Assembly (NCBI GenBank): GCA_965215515.1
Contig: OZ244057.1
Span: 96,001-160,000 of the forward strand
Source of the DNA: Oligoflexales bacterium
Lineage (GTDB): Bacteria > Bdellovibrionota_B > Oligoflexia > Oligoflexales > JAPPIL01
Reading direction: 5' to 3'
DNA length: 64,000 bases
A program made the translations under genes and the position numbers. Positions 31,462 through 41,487 of the stretch are shown piece after piece (the first letter of the stretch is position 1; each line of letters starts with the position of its first letter). The notes beneath the pieces were generated by a model. The model was not told where the DNA came from. It did not search any database and worked only from the letters and a program-made list of their open reading frames with translations.

Positions 31462-31773
31462 TCATTGCTTCCGCTCCCTCACCGTGTGCCCCTTGCCGAG
31501 GTAAGCCTTGATAGACTTGTCTATGTCCTCGATCGGGGCGGTGTTAATAAGGTTACGCAGGTAGCCGCGCCTGTCGAAGAACGTTGCGGCGATGCTGTTA
31601 TACTCCTGCGCCGCATACTTCTGAAAGAAGATTGCCACTATCTGGTTCAGCAGCTTCGAGCTGTCCACCTTGCAATAGTCACCCCGTAGTTTGGCGACCA
31701 GCTCACTAACTAGGCTGGCTTGTTCCTTGTCCAACAGCACCCTGCACACATCACCTTTGCGTTTCGCACTCAT
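31462..31773 (-). CDS. Small hypothetical ICE protein
   Basis: Last gene of the transfer operon; a homolog is conserved at protein level at about 56950-57180. Confidence 0.8.
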   Translation of the reverse strand: MSAKRKGDVCRVLLDKEQASLVSELVAKLRGDYCKVDSSKLLNQIVAIFFQKYAAQEYNSIAATFFDRRGYLRNLINTAPIEDIDKSIKAYLGKGHTVRERKQ

Positions 31774-32220
31774 TTATCGCCTCCTTGTGTTTAGTTGCCA
31801 GGTGGCGTTACCCCTGATTGTCCACACGCAATGTTGTTGCACTAGTTGATTGCCTTGCACCTCCCAATCGTAGCACTCCTTATCAACGTCAGGAGCGGAC
31901 AACCGAAAGTCCTGAACGCTCTGCCCTCTTGTCGGCGCAGATACAGAGAACTTATCGAGATTAAGCAGGGTCTGCCGCCTCGTCTTGCTGTCCCTCTTCT
32001 GTAATGCACCGTGGATCAGGTAGCTGCTAGCAGCACCGATCGCCGCGCCGACAAGTGCGCCCTTCAACGCACCCTTGCCGCTCGTCGCTGCCATGTTAGC
32101 CACTGCTCCTGTGCTCATGCCTATGCCCACACCTGCGGACATAGACCTGTGCAACGTTGCACATCCAGCCGCTAACGCGGCACTCAATACCAGGCACATC
32201 ACCATCACCTTCTGTTTCAT
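31774..32220 (-). CDS. Glycine-zipper lipoprotein of the transfer operon
   Basis: Lipobox LAAGC, GALKGALVGAAIGAA; SD ggagg. Confidence 0.8.
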   Translation of the reverse strand: MKQKVMVMCLVLSAALAAGCATLHRSMSAGVGIGMSTGAVANMAATSGKGALKGALVGAAIGAASSYLIHGALQKRDSKTRRQTLLNLDKFSVSAPTRGQSVQDFRLSAPDVDKECYDWEVQGNQLVQQHCVWTIRGNATWQLNTRRR

Positions 32221-32389
32221 GAAACCTCCTAATAGGTTGTTAAAAATGATCACTGAAAAATAATTCCCAAATTCTGGACTGATAAGAAATTTTGGCAACA
32301 AAAGATAATTAAATTCAATAGTTACCTCAATTGGCCTGTTCCAACTGGGATGATCCCTGGAACAGGAACTGAGAACACCCTTCACGCAC

Positions 32390-33187
32390 CTAACGAACAC
32401 GAAAGATGTACCCGATAGCATTCGTAAATGTCATTTCGTCCCGCTCGCCAAGGACATCGCCCAACATCGCTAAATACACTTTCGGTTTACGGCGATGGCG
32501 ATCTGCCACCTCCTTATCTATCTTGAGCAACCTGTCTAAAATGTGCTTGCTTGCACATACATAAAGCACACCATCAACTCCTCGCTTGACATAGTAAGCA
32601 TCAACCTTTTGGCGATAACGATCTTTACTTTTGACCGTCGTATCGAACTCGATAGCTAAATTCAACACCCCTATTCTTGTATTTACTTCAGCCATTGCGT
32701 CACTGTTCAATTCCACAAATGGCCTGAACTGTCTGTCCGATTTGAACCCCGTGCATGTTTGCAGAACATTTTCGCTGTAGTAGCTTTGCACCGCTCCTTT
32801 TGCCTCAAATGCTTGGCGAATGTCGTTCAAGGCGATGTCATGTAATGGACAATCACTTAACCTGCTTTCCGTTTTTACTTCGTATGCTAGTATTGGCTTG
32901 ACTTTAGTAAGGCCACGCGGTGTTAGATAGTAACTGTACATCGCCCCACGTCCCATAATGACTGACATTCTCGCTATCAAACCAAGATCAACAAGCTTGC
33001 GCAGCCGTTTGTTTACTGCGCGTTTAGACACACCAGAGAAAAATTGCTTGTTTATCTGCTCTCTGCTGATGATTTTGTTCTCAAACAGCGAACACATTAT
33101 CCGCCAGTCCCGTTCGCCCAAGATGACTTTGGCGATGTTTCTACTCGTTTCAAACATGGCTAGCTGTCTCTGATATTTTGTCATCAT
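32390..33187 (-). CDS. Replication-relaxation (Replic_Relax) family protein, putative relaxase
   Basis: N-terminal wHTH (RLRKLVDLGLI, YYLTPRG), LHDIALNDIR, SDA...LAIEFD, RYRQKVDAY. Confidence 0.75.
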   Translation of the reverse strand: MMTKYQRQLAMFETSRNIAKVILGERDWRIMCSLFENKIISREQINKQFFSGVSKRAVNKRLRKLVDLGLIARMSVIMGRGAMYSYYLTPRGLTKVKPILAYEVKTESRLSDCPLHDIALNDIRQAFEAKGAVQSYYSENVLQTCTGFKSDRQFRPFVELNSDAMAEVNTRIGVLNLAIEFDTTVKSKDRYRQKVDAYYVKRGVDGVLYVCASKHILDRLLKIDKEVADRHRRKPKVYLAMLGDVLGERDEMTFTNAIGYIFRVR

Positions 33188-34529
33188 CTGTCACCTCTAG
33201 AAGTGAATTAAAATTCTGCCTAATGCCATCTGTAAACTCTTGATTAATCACCTCCAGTTCTGCTTCAATCAATTCATCGTCAACGTAAGGTGCTTGCACC
33301 TGCCTCTGTTCGCTGCCATTACTCCACATGCCACGTCCCTTGATTGCAGGTAACTTTTGTGCAAAATTTCCGCCCATCGCCACATTTGAAGCCGCAGCTG
33401 AAATCATCCTGAAGGTCATGCGCCCCGTTAAATTGTCTAATATCTCTGTGCTAATCGCCTCCTTTACTGGTTTCTGTGTGGCAGGGATAAGGTGAATGCC
33501 AGCTGCTCTTGCTAAACGAGCAAGTTCACCCATACATTTACGTGCTGTTTCACTTGCCCCTTTGCCCAATAAAACCGTCGCTTCATCTATTCCAACCACG
33601 ATTAAATCTAGCTTGTCCCTTTCTGGATCAATTGACTTATGCCCGCTACTCTCTAAAAGTTCATAGCGGCGGTGCATTTCAGCAACTAGAGCCTCAAGAA
33701 TGCTGGTCGCCTCTACTTCATCTGCCGCTACCCTAACATTAGGTAGTGCTGCGAATTCCTTGACCTCCACCCCTCGCTTCATATCCAAGAGATAGAGCTG
33801 AATGTGCGGCGAACTTTTCAGCAGTGAAAGCATGGTCGAGCGGAAGAACACTGATTTACCGCCACCCGTAGCTCCAGAGATAAGTAAATGCGGCAGCGAT
33901 TGAATTTTCTGCACGATTGCACCATTCATACTTTGCCCAATAATGAAAGAATAAGATTCTTTCACATGGTCATAGAGTTCGTGAAAGCCGACCATGCTAG
34001 GCAGATCACGCTCACACAGCACGATCTCGACCTTGCCCATATCTTTGCCATGTACGATGTCTTCAACCTTTTGGCGAAAGCCTGCGGTTAAACTATCCTT
34101 CTGTGCTTGAAACTTATTGAGACCAACACCAACGGTATCGACGATCACCTTGAGGCGGTGTTCACCTATGGGAATGATCGCTTTTACTTTTGGCTTCTCA
34201 CCTGTGGCGGTTTTCAAGCCAGCCCGTTCAATGGCCTTTTGAAACAAGATATATCTTCTGAAATCCTTGCTCCCGCAAAGGAACACGGCGAGCAGCACAA
34301 ACAAGCCTACCATGGGAAAATAAAGGTCTACTGCTTGCTCATAGCTCAGTATTCCAAACAGCACTGTCATGAGAATACCATTGATCAGCAGAAAGCATCC
34401 CCATGTGTTTAAGTCCTTGAAGTCAATTCGCCGCAAGCCAAACCAACAAACTCTTGCTATATTGAAGAGACAATACAGCAGCATAAGAACAAAATTTTCC
34501 AGCACCTGATTATCTTTTGCTTTACTCAT
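33150..34529 (-). CDS. FtsK/SpoIIIE-family ATPase, putative coupling protein
   Basis: N-terminal TMs, PHLLISGATGGGKS, DMKRGVE, IDEA, RAAGIHLIPATQKP. Confidence 0.9.
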   Translation of the reverse strand: MSKAKDNQVLENFVLMLLYCLFNIARVCWFGLRRIDFKDLNTWGCFLLINGILMTVLFGILSYEQAVDLYFPMVGLFVLLAVFLCGSKDFRRYILFQKAIERAGLKTATGEKPKVKAIIPIGEHRLKVIVDTVGVGLNKFQAQKDSLTAGFRQKVEDIVHGKDMGKVEIVLCERDLPSMVGFHELYDHVKESYSFIIGQSMNGAIVQKIQSLPHLLISGATGGGKSVFFRSTMLSLLKSSPHIQLYLLDMKRGVEVKEFAALPNVRVAADEVEATSILEALVAEMHRRYELLESSGHKSIDPERDKLDLIVVGIDEATVLLGKGASETARKCMGELARLARAAGIHLIPATQKPVKEAISTEILDNLTGRMTFRMISAAASNVAMGGNFAQKLPAIKGRGMWSNGSEQRQVQAPYVDDELIEAELEVINQEFTDGIRQNFNSLLEVTDDDKISETASHV

Positions 34530-40538: not shown

Positions 40539-40845
40539 GAATTCTTCTCCTCATCGGTAAAACTTTGGCTGGCTCTTCCCCTGCTGAAAAAAATCCTGTC
40601 TCCAAGTAGAAGCGAAGGAGATGCGGCAAAAACTTTTCAGGCTTGCCGCGCTTGCCGAAATAGCAGACAGCGAGTATGAGCACAGGCACACCAATCACCA
40701 GCGGCAGTTCTAACGCGGTGCTGCTGAAGAACAGGTTCATGATTGCCCCACATATTAGGGCAATGAGCAGGTCAAAGGCTTCGATGTTGCCGATCTTAAG
40801 CTTCGCATCCAAGTTTCTTTGTACTGTTGAGATGTTAATTTTCAT
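40531..40845 (-). CDS. VirB3-like membrane protein
   Basis: Two TMs, lies between the pilin and VirB4, overlaps the virB4 start. Confidence 0.65.
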   Translation of the reverse strand: MKINISTVQRNLDAKLKIGNIEAFDLLIALICGAIMNLFFSSTALELPLVIGVPVLILAVCYFGKRGKPEKFLPHLLRFYLETGFFSAGEEPAKVLPMRRRIHA

Positions 40846-40849
40846 TGCC

Positions 40850-41158
40850 TCACCCCACCGCCGCAGATTGAAACCAGCGAATAATCGGTGGAGCAAGAAA
40901 ACCCACCACGCTAGCAATGACCACAAGCACCATGCGCCGCTTCGCTCCTTCGTCGCCACCCATGGCAAGCATAGCAGCATAGAGCAGACCAAGAATGGCC
41001 ACCGCGGGCAAGACTACCGACATCAAATTGTCGGTAAACGAACGAATTCGGCTTTCAAAACCGCTGCTACCCCATGCCAGCGCAAGATCAGGCAGGTTGA
41101 GCACTGCACCGCTGCACACCAAAAGATAAATTTTCCAAAAAACTTTTCTCATGATCAA
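40850..41158 (-). CDS. VirB2/TrbC-like conjugative pilin
   Basis: Signal peptide plus two hydrophobic helices, about 100 aa, first of the virB genes. Confidence 0.75.
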   Translation of the reverse strand: MIMRKVFWKIYLLVCSGAVLNLPDLALAWGSSGFESRIRSFTDNLMSVVLPAVAILGLLYAAMLAMGGDEGAKRRMVLVVIASVVGFLAPPIIRWFQSAAVG

Positions 41159-41487
41159 ACTCCTTTCACGTAGAGGATTAAAGTTTTAAATTTTGAGCCA
41201 TAGTTGATAAACACGTTGCCATTGCTATCACTGTAGCCTGTGCCGACTAGCTGACGTTTCAAAAAACTGCCGTCTTTGCGTTTGATGACTAATTCCAGCC
41301 GGTAGCTGGTATGCTCACCTTTGCAAGCACAGGGCTTGAGAAAATACTGCTTGTCGCTTGGTTCTTCGTCGATCTTCAAAAGATACTCACCATAGGTAGG
41401 GTTGTAGAAACCAACGCCCGCATGAATGACAGTGCCATCACGTGGATCAAGCCAACCAAGATTAAGCGTTGCGCTTTTCCGTTGCAT
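41155..41487 (-). CDS. Hypothetical ICE protein
   Basis: Coupled ORF upstream of the pilin; beta-rich appearance. Confidence 0.7.
   Translation of the reverse strand: MQRKSATLNLGWLDPRDGTVIHAGVGFYNPTYGEYLLKIDEEPSDKQYFLKPCACKGEHTSYRLELVIKRKDGSFLKRQLVGTGYSDSNGNVFINYGSKFKTLILYVKGV

Follow-up and report, generated by a model that had tools for sequence, protein, structure and literature searches.

According to passages of a 2025 nomenclature review (PMC12857230), VirD4 occurs in all Gram-negative type IV secretion systems (T4SSs) and TcpA in a subset of the mating-pair formation (MPF) class MPF_FA; the part of Guglielmini et al. (2012, PMC3548315) that treats coupling proteins likewise finds TcpA only in Firmicutes. 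In the present work, we analyzed a 64,000-nucleotide stretch of an Oligoflexales genome (assembly GCA_965215515.1, contig OZ244057.1, positions 96,001 to 160,000; hereafter, the window) and describe an operon that departs from this pattern. We consider it quite likely that the operon is the transfer module of an intact integrative and conjugative element (ICE) of about 27 kb from a diderm of the Bdellovibrionota type, in which a TcpA/FtsK-like ATPase serves coupling and a MOB_C relaxase processes the DNA. An earlier note on this DNA, made from the sequence alone, had drawn the same link between FtsK-type coupling proteins and Firmicutes, and the cited passages, which confine the TcpA type to Firmicutes MPF_FA, agree with it.

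The map of open reading frames (ORFs) reveals 13 co-directional genes on the minus strand, from 41511 (or 41487) down to 31462, that form one operon, followed downstream by a large serine recombinase gene; all 13 genes and the recombinase gene are intact in the window copy. Neighboring genes, from the first one through the relaxase gene, either overlap by 1-38 nt or are 2-4 nt apart, and a 167-nt spacer lies upstream of the lipoprotein gene. The gene content and tight coupling agree with the earlier description (ORF map, Pfam, NCBIfam). In operon order, with Pfam scores set against the gathering cut-off (GA), the genes are:

41155..41511, minus strand: conserved first operon gene, 118 aa; TTG start, with an ATG at 41487 that the earlier note took as the start; same position in family loci
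40850..41158, minus strand: VirB2/TrbC-type pilin (PF04956 27.4 bits, just below the GA of 27.9; PF18895 21.6 bits)
40531..40845, minus strand: VirB3/TraL-like small membrane protein, by position, size and hydrophobic hairpin; 8-nt overlap with the VirB4 start
38031..40538, minus strand: VirB4/TraC-type ATPase, 835 aa (TIGR02746, TIGR00929, PF11130, PF19044)
37333..38028, minus strand: secreted helical protein, VirB5/TrbJ-like by position (NCBIfam TrbJ_Ti E 5.5e-4, 19 bits against a cut-off of 100)
36449..37333, minus strand: polytopic membrane protein; its position and topology suggest a VirB6/TrbL-like protein, and Pfam, NCBIfam and PDB profiles give no match
35847..36452, minus strand: VirB8 homolog, 201 aa, with an N-terminal transmembrane helix and an NTF2-like periplasmic domain, by fold
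35461..35847, minus strand: VirB9-like N-terminal domain only, 128 aa, with a signal peptide (CagX, TIGR02781)
34526..35464, minus strand: VirB10/TrbI-like protein (PF03743 42.6 bits, above the GA of 35)
33150..34529, minus strand: TcpA-like FtsK/SpoIIIE coupling ATPase (PF01580 89.6 bits)
32390..33187, minus strand: MOB_C-type relaxase candidate (PF13814 39.1 bits, above the GA of 25.3)
31774..32220, minus strand: glycine-zipper lipoprotein, lipobox ...LAAGC (Gly-zipper_YMGG 19.6 bits)
31462..31773, minus strand: conserved 103-aa protein, last operon gene; no family match, homologs at the same place in relatives

The gene between those for VirB10 and the relaxase encodes an ATPase with N-terminal membrane segments, a Walker A motif GATGGGKS and a Walker B motif DE, both motifs being invariant in 13 family members; the sequence contains no gamma domain and has no match to the VirD4 families of Pfam. 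Its best PDB match is the coupling protein of the Clostridium perfringens plasmid pCW3 (6o1z/6o1x/6o1w, E 6e-27), followed by FtsK (2iuu, E 3e-21). The best plasmid matches are all on pCW3-family plasmids of C. perfringens and cover residues 5 to 419-456 at 25-27% identity. In pCW3, residues 5-419 align at 26.6% identity with the gene that is flanked by tcpM and tcpB and so occupies the tcpA position. The PF01580 score, the 6o1z match and the full-length match to pCW3 tcpA bear out the earlier reading of this protein as an FtsK-like coupling-type ATPase. In a quick maximum-likelihood tree of type IV coupling proteins (T4CPs; 34 rows), the Bdellovibrionota rows fall together and are separate from both true FtsK and the pCW3 TcpA/TcpB pair; the long branch of Myxococcus VirD4 and three distant rows fall among them. 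Clostridia matches of about 1000-1200 aa, considered as further TcpA-like proteins, were rejected, as they group with host FtsK in this tree. The window protein combines an FtsK motor with an N-terminal anchor, lies nearer to TcpA than to VirD4 and belongs to a module without VirD4. We call it TcpA-like by architecture and best match, and not a proven member of the TcpA clade, because these two lines fit while the deep order of the tree is unsettled. Modeled as a complex, the T4CP motor (residues 95-459) and the relaxase scored 0.12, 0.35 and 0.03.

Comparison with the Tcp system of pCW3 (C. perfringens, MPF_FA; coupling protein TcpA, relaxase TcpM) revealed several common features: (i) a coupling ATPase with N-terminal membrane segments and an FtsK-type motor, (ii) the location of this ATPase beside a non-HUH relaxase, upstream of or within the VirB4 operon, and (iii) the lack of both VirD4 and VirB11. 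The two systems differ in that the coupling proteins are only 26-27% identical and their clades are not joined with support in the tree, that the relaxase is MOB_M in pCW3 and MOB_C in the Bdellovibrionota element, and that the latter has a VirB2 pilin and periplasm-spanning parts of the VirB9/VirB10 type in a host with lipopolysaccharide genes. Of 19 island proteins compared with the pCW3 tcp region, none but the FtsK-like ATPase matched at E<=0.01, VirB4 being among those without a match.

The adjacent gene encodes the relaxase candidate, recognized by the Replic_Relax model PF13814 in the window and in the relative L023 (40.2 bits). A tblastn search aligned 72% of its length with CloDF13-type mobC genes in 454 plasmid records (25-26% identity, E 3e-6). 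According to the methods-related part of Coluzzi et al. (2017, PMC5357655), T4CP and relaxase classes have CONJscan profiles, which qualifies the earlier suggestion that standard conjugation finders may overlook such elements, and PF13814 is the profile of the MobC class. The assignment to Replic_Relax relaxases made in the earlier note stands, and the protein, far from being unclassified, corresponds to the described MOB_C class. Passages of the nomenclature review ascribe to MOB_C a winged helix-turn-helix (HTH), an active site of the restriction-endonuclease type and nicking at oriT, and state that MOB_C relaxases gave no covalent DNA intermediate (PMC12857230). The AlphaFold2 (AF2) model of the window protein (predicted local distance difference test, pLDDT, 91.5) has a clear N-terminal winged HTH at residues 1-103 (Z ~12). 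With the whole model, a wide fold search (VIA-align) returned only winged-helix regulators covering residues 1-129, and an alignment profile run against PDB sequences returned only weak HTH regulators. The top whole-protein match in Foldseek is FokI (E 8.7e-5, with a template modeling (TM) score below 0.3). Seven residues are invariant in 18 family members (S111, H116, D117, E139, N140, D163 and E180), and a conserved lysine lies near D163/E180. Of the proposed architecture of a winged HTH plus a PD-(D/E)XK nuclease, the first half is clear; the indications for the second are the FokI match and the invariant D163 and E180 with the lysine close to them. The candidate resembles described MOB_C proteins (CloDF13 MobC, pAD1 TraX) in its PF13814 score above GA, its N-terminal winged helix and its conserved acidic and lysine residues in the C-terminal part, and differs from them in the identity of only 25-26% and in a score far below the NCBIfam MobC cut-off. 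In the literature consulted, MOB_C is paired with VirD4-type coupling proteins, and never with TcpA among the streptococcal integrative and mobilizable elements treated in the respective part of Coluzzi et al. (PMC5357655).

The channel components were recognized by different means. The 201-aa VirB8 protein has no family match by the sequence models of Pfam or NCBIfam, and its AF2 model, built from 21 family sequences (pLDDT 90.4), gave 37 Foldseek matches at E<=0.001. Among the matches listed, all but one are VirB8-family structures, including CagV, Rickettsia and Bartonella VirB8/TrwG, Brucella/Agrobacterium VirB8, pKM101 TraE, DotI and PrgL, with target-normalized TM scores of 0.63-0.72 against the periplasmic-domain structures. 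The VirB8 call is structurally sound because nearly all of these matches are to VirB8-family structures; for this protein, the structural check proposed in the earlier note confirmed the fold. The VirB10/TrbI domain also scores 40-45 bits in three distant relatives. Weak DUF3487 matches occur in two of five homologs of the VirB3-like protein. For the VirB5- and VirB6-like proteins, the nearest language-model clusters (Atlas) provide leads only: those of the former carry PF07996/TrbJ (0.89-0.91, low recognition), and the nearest named ones of the latter carry TrbL families (0.89-0.91). Alignment profiles of the VirB8-, VirB6- and VirB5-like proteins gave nothing usable against PDB sequences, and hhalign comparisons with single pTi TrbJ, TrbL and VirB9 sequences were not significant (E 0.28 for the VirB5-like, 0.16 for the VirB6-like and 0.26 for the VirB9-like protein). 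All six lipoprotein homologs analyzed match the Gly-zipper model, one with an additional weak match to TraT and one to TraV; the lipoprotein is a candidate for either a VirB7/TraV-like core lipoprotein or a TraT-like exclusion protein. The 118-aa and 103-aa proteins have no match in Pfam, NCBIfam or PHROG. The operon thus combines a VirB4 ATPase, recognized by its models, with co-located channel components, VirB8 by fold and TrbI above GA, as expected of a conjugative T4SS.

The VirB9-like protein departs from its family. Its CagX match (24.7 bits, below the GA of 34.2) spans profile positions 2-98 of 198, TIGR02781 scores 31 bits, and an N-terminal match of this kind recurs in all eight VirB9-like homologs scanned. 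In 17 of 19 aligned family members, the protein has 230-290 aa and a C-terminal beta-rich domain of about 120 aa; in the window (128 aa) and in the closest relative L002 (127 aa), it ends after the N-terminal domain. The window copy therefore has only one of the two beta domains of VirB9/CagX proteins, with a score below GA. Among other copies in the genome, copy B is identical to the window across VirB9 and VirB10, and copies C and D show a gap of about 370 bp in the VirB9 comparison, consistent with the long form. The short VirB9 appears to be maintained and not in fresh decay, because it is under purifying selection (dN/dS 0.098 versus L002). Of the VirB2-3-4-5-6-8-9-10 set listed in the earlier note, VirB4 and VirB10 are recognized by profile and VirB8 by fold, VirB9 is reduced to its N-terminal domain, and VirB3, VirB5 and VirB6 were assigned by position and weak leads; the proposed diderm-type VirB9/VirB10 pair is accordingly upheld for VirB10, above GA, and for one domain of VirB9 in the window copy.

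VirB4 matches TIGR02746 best (285 bits, cut-off 567, E 1.1e-84), followed by TIGR00929 (VirB4_CagE; 174 bits, E 4.7e-51), and exceeds GA for PF11130, the TraC_F_IV N-domain (63.9 bits, GA 28.1), and for PF19044 (67 bits). It stays below the cut-offs of all class-specific NCBIfam models tested: CD1110 (135 bits, cut-off 325), Mbov_0397 (86 and 590), PFL_4706 (68 and 521) and Bac_Flav_CT_G (29 and 262), so that the cut-offs for MPF_G, MPF_B and MPF_FATA/FA are not reached; the TrbE models give 70 bits with cut-offs of 810-1020. The best full-length plasmid matches are on Myxococcus pYRE (E 2e-49, 24% identity), Thermus plasmids (25%) and IncC-type TraC (23%), and TrbE matches in the C-terminal half only. 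In a VirB4 tree of 23 rows, the 14 family sequences form one clade with a support of 100, apart from IncF/IncC/IncHI TraC (98), pTi VirB4 with TrbE (99) and Myxococcus with Thermus (90), on a backbone that is not settled. The tree was built without references for MPF_G, I, B, C and FATA, and MPF_I and MPF_C were also without a model. The locus does not fall into MPF_T, as its VirB4 lies outside the pTi VirB4 and TrbE pair and the island lacks VirB11 and VirD4, nor into MPF_F, as TIGR02746 stays below its cut-off and the clade lies apart from the three TraC references. The Pfam scan covered ORFs at 26-64 kb, hand-picked from the list of those of at least 100 aa plus three shorter ones, and found no F-specific TraF, TraH, TraN, TraU, TraW or TrbC in the island. 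By sequence, the VirB4 clade is outside the sampled MPF_F and MPF_T references; the phylogenetic check suggested earlier gave this separation with a partial reference set.

Two further systems are instructive for comparison. With MPF_F TraC, Myxococcus pYRE and the Thermus plasmids, the operon shares a VirB4 with the TraC_F_IV N-domain, a TraC-F-type model as the best NCBIfam match, and full-length matches at 23-25% identity; pYRE also has a similar arrangement of two small genes, VirB4 and four mid-size genes. Unlike the operon, pYRE and the Thermus plasmid carry VirD4-type genes, and VirB4 is their only detectably similar protein. With the Agrobacterium VirB/VirD4 system (MPF_T), it shares the order pilin, B3, B4, B5, B6, B8, B9, B10, the VirB8 fold and the VirB10/TrbI domain; in contrast to that system, it has no VirB1, VirB11 or VirD4, and VirB7 is not in its usual place.

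The lack of the canonical partners extends beyond the window. No VirD4, VirB11 or HUH-relaxase family was found in the Pfam-scanned ORFs, and neither the window nor the 79 related loci, 55 of which belong to the family, gave a tblastn match to any of three VirD4 and three VirB11/TrbB-type queries; in particular, no family locus has a VirD4 within 9 kb by this search. Pfam also detected no VirD4 or VirB11 in the scanned ORFs of three distant members, and no PF03432 relaxase was found in the genome, which is 93.9% complete by marker genes. The genome has a single VirD4-like gene (TrwB_AAD_bind, 180 bits; C1:1,668,254-1,670,017), about 1.5 Mb from the operon, in a separate F-like T4SS locus with TraE, TraK_C, TrbI, TraF and a T2SSE ATPase. 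This second locus (L081, C1:1,660,000-1,676,500) also encodes a distant VirB4-like ORF of 926 aa and a 54% paralog of the Cro/CI-type regulator of the element. The absence of VirB11, VirD4 and an HUH relaxase claimed earlier is thus valid for the island (Pfam, tblastn) and, as regards VirD4, not for the whole genome, where a separate T4SS locus encodes one.

When 185,579 species genomes were scanned for the pattern, 79 loci emerged; 55 of them, nearly all in metagenome-assembled genomes of Bdellovibrionota, encode a relative of the coupling ATPase with about 35-80% identity. The titles of 51 of these name Oligoflexales/Oligoflexia, Bdellovibrionia/-ales/-aceae, Bacteriovoracia/-ales/-aceae, Halobacteriovoraceae, Pseudobdellovibrionaceae or Bdellovibrionota; the other four are labeled Proteobacteria, Polynucleobacter, Alphaproteobacteria and 'bacterium'. 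The relaxase gene adjoins the T4CP gene in 51 of the 55 loci, and VirB10 lies upstream in 46. All eight core genes (VirB4, B5, B6, B8, B9, B10, T4CP and relaxase) are present in 34 loci, and all 34 are collinear. Among the 21 incomplete loci, the upstream flank is truncated in 15, and 14 of these miss core genes there; L053, truncated at both ends, has neither VirB4 nor the relaxase. The upstream flank is full in the other six, including L054, which is cut downstream and lacks the relaxase only. The remaining five (L042, L047, L048, L050 and L055) have the T4CP-relaxase pair with a full upstream flank and either no recognizable MPF genes or only a 22-34% VirB4 match; possible explanations are that they are mobilizable derivatives or that their pair is linked to a different MPF.

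Three distant members have the same Pfam composition, one with a tyrosine integrase and one with a serine recombinase. Of 27 loci examined, 15 have a tRNA or tmRNA gene immediately beyond the recombinase gene and on the other strand (Pro in six, Arg in three, Ala in two, and Asp, Met, Glu plus Lys, and tmRNA in one each). Ten operon genes compared with L002 have dN/dS values of 0.05-0.21 at dS of 0.6-2.0. This module characterizes a phylum-wide family with exchangeable integration modules (serine or tyrosine recombinases, tRNA or tmRNA targets), and the synteny survey called for in the earlier note showed it to be conserved across Bdellovibrionota.

The operon belongs to a larger element, with a recombinase, regulators and cargo out to about 56.4 kb. 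The features that define this element and its surroundings are:

29043..29395, plus strand: tmRNA gene, tag GDNYALAA (ARAGORN), the integration target; acceptor 3' strand ends at 29393
29390..29393, no strand: attL core CTCC, marking the left end; the CC at 29392-29393 is common to all junction types, and blastn identity to other copies starts at 29390/29392
29333..31126, minus strand: large serine recombinase, 597 aa as integrated (Pfam Resolvase 55.8 and Recombinase 54.7 bits; NCBIfam CcrB/XisF-like below cut-offs)
41515-41817 and 41869-42369, minus strand: two sigma-70 region-4-only proteins (Sigma70_r4_2 32.6 and 47.2 bits), candidate activators of the transfer operon
42821..43360, plus strand: divergent Cro/CI-type HTH protein (HTH_31 40.4 and HTH_3 34.8 bits) with paralogs in other copies, candidate element repressor
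43674-44240, minus strand: backbone protein, 188 aa; no Pfam, NCBIfam or PHROG match
44807-46468, plus strand: backbone protein, 553 aa; no Pfam, NCBIfam, PHROG or PDB match; 73% in copy B
46528..55887, no strand: cargo (Pfam: UvrD-like helicase, AAA_23/SMC-like ATPase, metallophosphoesterase, two ThsB-type TIR, YhgA-like Transposase_31)
55900..56377, minus strand: right-end (P) arm, encoding a 158-aa HTH tail (PF07508 29.3 bits)
56378..63907, no strand: decayed tandem remnant of a second family element, closing with a P arm of 88 nt and, at 63904-63907, the attR core CTCC

At attL, the junction reads ...CGCCTCC followed by GCTCTCCCAGCG..., and at attR (63904-63907) it reads ...TTGCTCC followed by ACCAATTCC.... 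Two attP-like junctions are available for comparison, one in genome copy B, with a homologous arm and then the same right side, and one at 56376; the CC core is common to all four. When the tmRNA side of attL is linked to the sequence beyond attR, the result is ...CGCCTCC-ACCA plus a hairpin, a reconstructed attB that has the form of a normal tmRNA 3' end and terminator; the displaced ACCA and hairpin lie from 63908 onward. The four-junction comparison and the reconstructed attB delimit an intact element at about 29392-56377 (~27 kb), which, judged by sequence comparison, the large serine recombinase integrated at the CC core of the tmRNA gene 3' end, and a second element at 56378-63907. The element thus has both a recombinase and definable att sites, as an ICE does. 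Beyond the island, core genes (Lol-type ABC transporter, Mrp, SNF2 helicase, RibF and LpxA) are found again from about 68.4 kb on, and the flanking LpxA and Lol genes support a diderm host. The GC content of the island is 38-50%, compared with 52.6% for the genome.

The recombinase gene overlaps the tmRNA gene with its final ~20 codons. The 158-aa tail is in frame with the recombinase 3' end across the tandem junction at 56376 and is kept at 54-84% at the right ends of other copies; integration appears to swap this HTH tail for about 20 tmRNA-encoded residues. The recombinase gene seemingly spans attP (29333-29393 and 55900-56377; copy B junction near C1:27,630), an arrangement known from fusellovirus-type tyrosine integrases and not from large serine recombinases.

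Besides the intact window copy, the genome has a near-intact one at C1:1,630,799-1,647,632, degraded copies at 2,819-18,971 and 607,103-620,458, and several remnants. Of the recombinase, the tandem remnant retains residues 386-581, with 98% identity to the intact copy; the genes for the 103-aa protein, lipoprotein, relaxase, VirB10, VirB8 and VirB6 persist in it as fragments at 77-88%.

The following mechanism is consistent with these parts. A Cro/CI-type repressor and the two sigma-region-4 proteins would control one long operon, which would build an envelope-spanning T4SS from the VirB2 pilin, VirB3, the TraC-type VirB4, the VirB5- and VirB6-like proteins, VirB8, the VirB9 N-domain, VirB10 and the lipoprotein. 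The serine recombinase would excise the element; then the MOB_C-type relaxase would bind it via the winged helix and nick oriT via the nuclease-like domain. A membrane-anchored hexamer of the TcpA/FtsK-like ATPase would replace VirD4 as both coupling protein and DNA pump, VirB4 being the only other ATPase because VirB11 is absent. The DNA, most likely one strand, would pass through the VirB2-VirB10-type channel, and the recombinase would reintegrate the element at the tmRNA (or tRNA) gene of the recipient.

Several points weigh against reading the locus as a working ICE of this kind. Transfer, excision and nicking we infer from the gene content. The T4CP tree leaves open whether TcpA or FtsK is the sister group, with the VirD4 outgroups on long branches. 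The VirB3, VirB5 and VirB6 assignments, which draw on position, size, topology and weak leads, are the weaker ones and gained no significant profile or fold support. The outer-membrane core may differ or be impaired when VirB9 has no C-terminal domain. For the relaxase, the NCBIfam model MobC_subf gives 32.4 bits, far below its cut-off of 200, and the C-terminal domain is a candidate nuclease-like domain as judged from the whole-protein model. No oriT was identified in the element, where the only repeats detected in a search for oriT-like arrays were short two-copy ones and an 84-nt repeat, also in two copies, at 43459-43612. The distant VirD4 could conceivably act in trans. In the contigs from four public runs, no circular junction was present and the only joints were paralogue-derived, and contigs cannot show rare forms; these joints match paralogous remnants elsewhere in the genome (e.g., 31060 to 41673), and a loose end at 29390 matches the copy B junction.

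The same element might instead move double-stranded DNA, with the FtsK/TcpA-like hexamer pumping the duplex, like Streptomyces TraB, and the relaxase only linearizing or marking the element; we regard this as unlikely. The PDB match and the T4CP tree do place the motor in the dsDNA-translocase branch, but its sequence has no gamma/KOPS-type domain, and to our knowledge a channel of the VirB2-VirB10 type carries only single-stranded DNA or unfolded protein. Passages of the nomenclature review relay a suggestion, made for TcpA of pCW3, that Tcp may move dsDNA, and their report of no covalent intermediate for MOB_C points the same way (PMC12857230), whereas TcpA systems with MOB_T relaxases (Tn916, ICEBs1) are treated as single-stranded DNA conjugation in the relevant part of PMC3548315. 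We favor single-strand transfer because of this treatment of the TcpA and MOB_T systems and because the relaxase is conserved beside the motor.

It is very unlikely that the window copy is non-transferring, domesticated or decaying, with its core disabled by the VirB9 truncation and its spread being vertical or due to intragenomic recombination. The loss of a VirB9 domain that 17 of 19 aligned members retain, the visible degradation of two of the four large genome copies and the lack of a circular form in contigs would fit such a state, but all 13 operon genes and the recombinase are intact in this copy, the short VirB9 is common to L002, and selection acts on it as on the operon genes as a whole (dN/dS 0.05-0.21). 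Bdellovibrionota are largely predators, which counts for a reading of the T4SS as a non-conjugative system. This reading, in which the T4SS serves DNA release, DNA uptake or effector delivery by a predator, or the FtsK-like protein segregates DNA while VirD4 couples in trans, gains from the VirD4 elsewhere in the genome and from the frequent co-option of T4SSs for other roles noted in a part of PMC3548315, but is highly improbable given that the FtsK-like and relaxase genes adjoin in 51 of 55 loci and lie inside the T4SS operon in all 34 complete ones, that the module travels with integrases beside tRNA or tmRNA genes, and that tblastn reveals no VirD4 at any family locus within 9 kb.

With the operon read as the transfer module of a conjugative element, its parts come from known superfamilies; what is new is how they are combined, their envelope context and the phylum. 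In the open full-text literature, with subscription-only papers and supplements outside the scope, we found no description of this module or of a TcpA-type plus VirB combination in diderms, and a full-text search found no paper joining Bdellovibrio, 'integrative and conjugative' and FtsK; a Bdellovibrio genome paper, in the part that concerns islands, mentions ICE-like ones only in general terms (PMC3539863). The earlier suggestion of an under-described class agrees with this search and with the conservation across Bdellovibrionota. A conserved, selected and multi-copy family in this phylum would break the rule that TcpA is confined to Firmicutes and VirD4 present in all Gram-negative systems, as it couples a TcpA-like motor and a MOB_C nuclease-type relaxase with an outer-membrane-spanning VirB-type machine. 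It would provide a second, phylogenetically remote system for asking whether FtsK-like coupling proteins move single or double strands, and how an adduct-free relaxase hands DNA to the channel. The family would also represent the main conjugative elements of predatory bacteria, which carry anti-phage cargo and make up several percent of the 2.18-Mb genome. As a tentative extension, it is possible, though we lean against it, that the family forms a separate phylum-wide diderm MPF lineage, in which an FtsK/TcpA dsDNA-pump-type motor was recruited into a VirB9/VirB10 machine in place of VirD4, VirB11 was lost and the relaxase is a non-covalent MOB_C, either independently of Firmicute Tcp/Tn916 or anciently shared with them. 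If so, the substrate could move without a covalently attached pilot protein, possibly as a duplex.

The remaining parts of the element include two adjacent 70-nt repeat units at 43459-43612 (84-nt spacing, 76% identical), between the HTH regulator gene and the gene of the 188-aa protein. The backbone genes at 43674..46468 are kept in genome copy B at 73-83%, and the 553-aa protein is, by elimination, a candidate for a replication or maintenance function. The cargo at 46528-54151 is defense-like and comprises a UvrD-type helicase (711 aa), an AAA_23/SMC-like ATPase (879 aa), a metallophosphoesterase (382 aa) and ThsB-type TIR proteins at 52590-53252 and 53636-54151; its GC content of 38-39% is the lowest in the window. 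The YhgA-like Transposase_31 gene (54820-55887) is multi-copy in the genome. The tandem remnant also holds RhuM, a weak pPIWI-nuclease-like ORF and an AbiEi/AbiEii pair.

Integration turns the 3' tail of the tmRNA from ACCA into GCTC, and the original ACCA with its terminator-like hairpin is now 34.5 kb away; maturation of the tmRNA in this host would need CCA addition, with G as the discriminator. Copies and remnants of the family occupy about a dozen places in the 2.18-Mb genome, an unusually heavy load of one ICE family.

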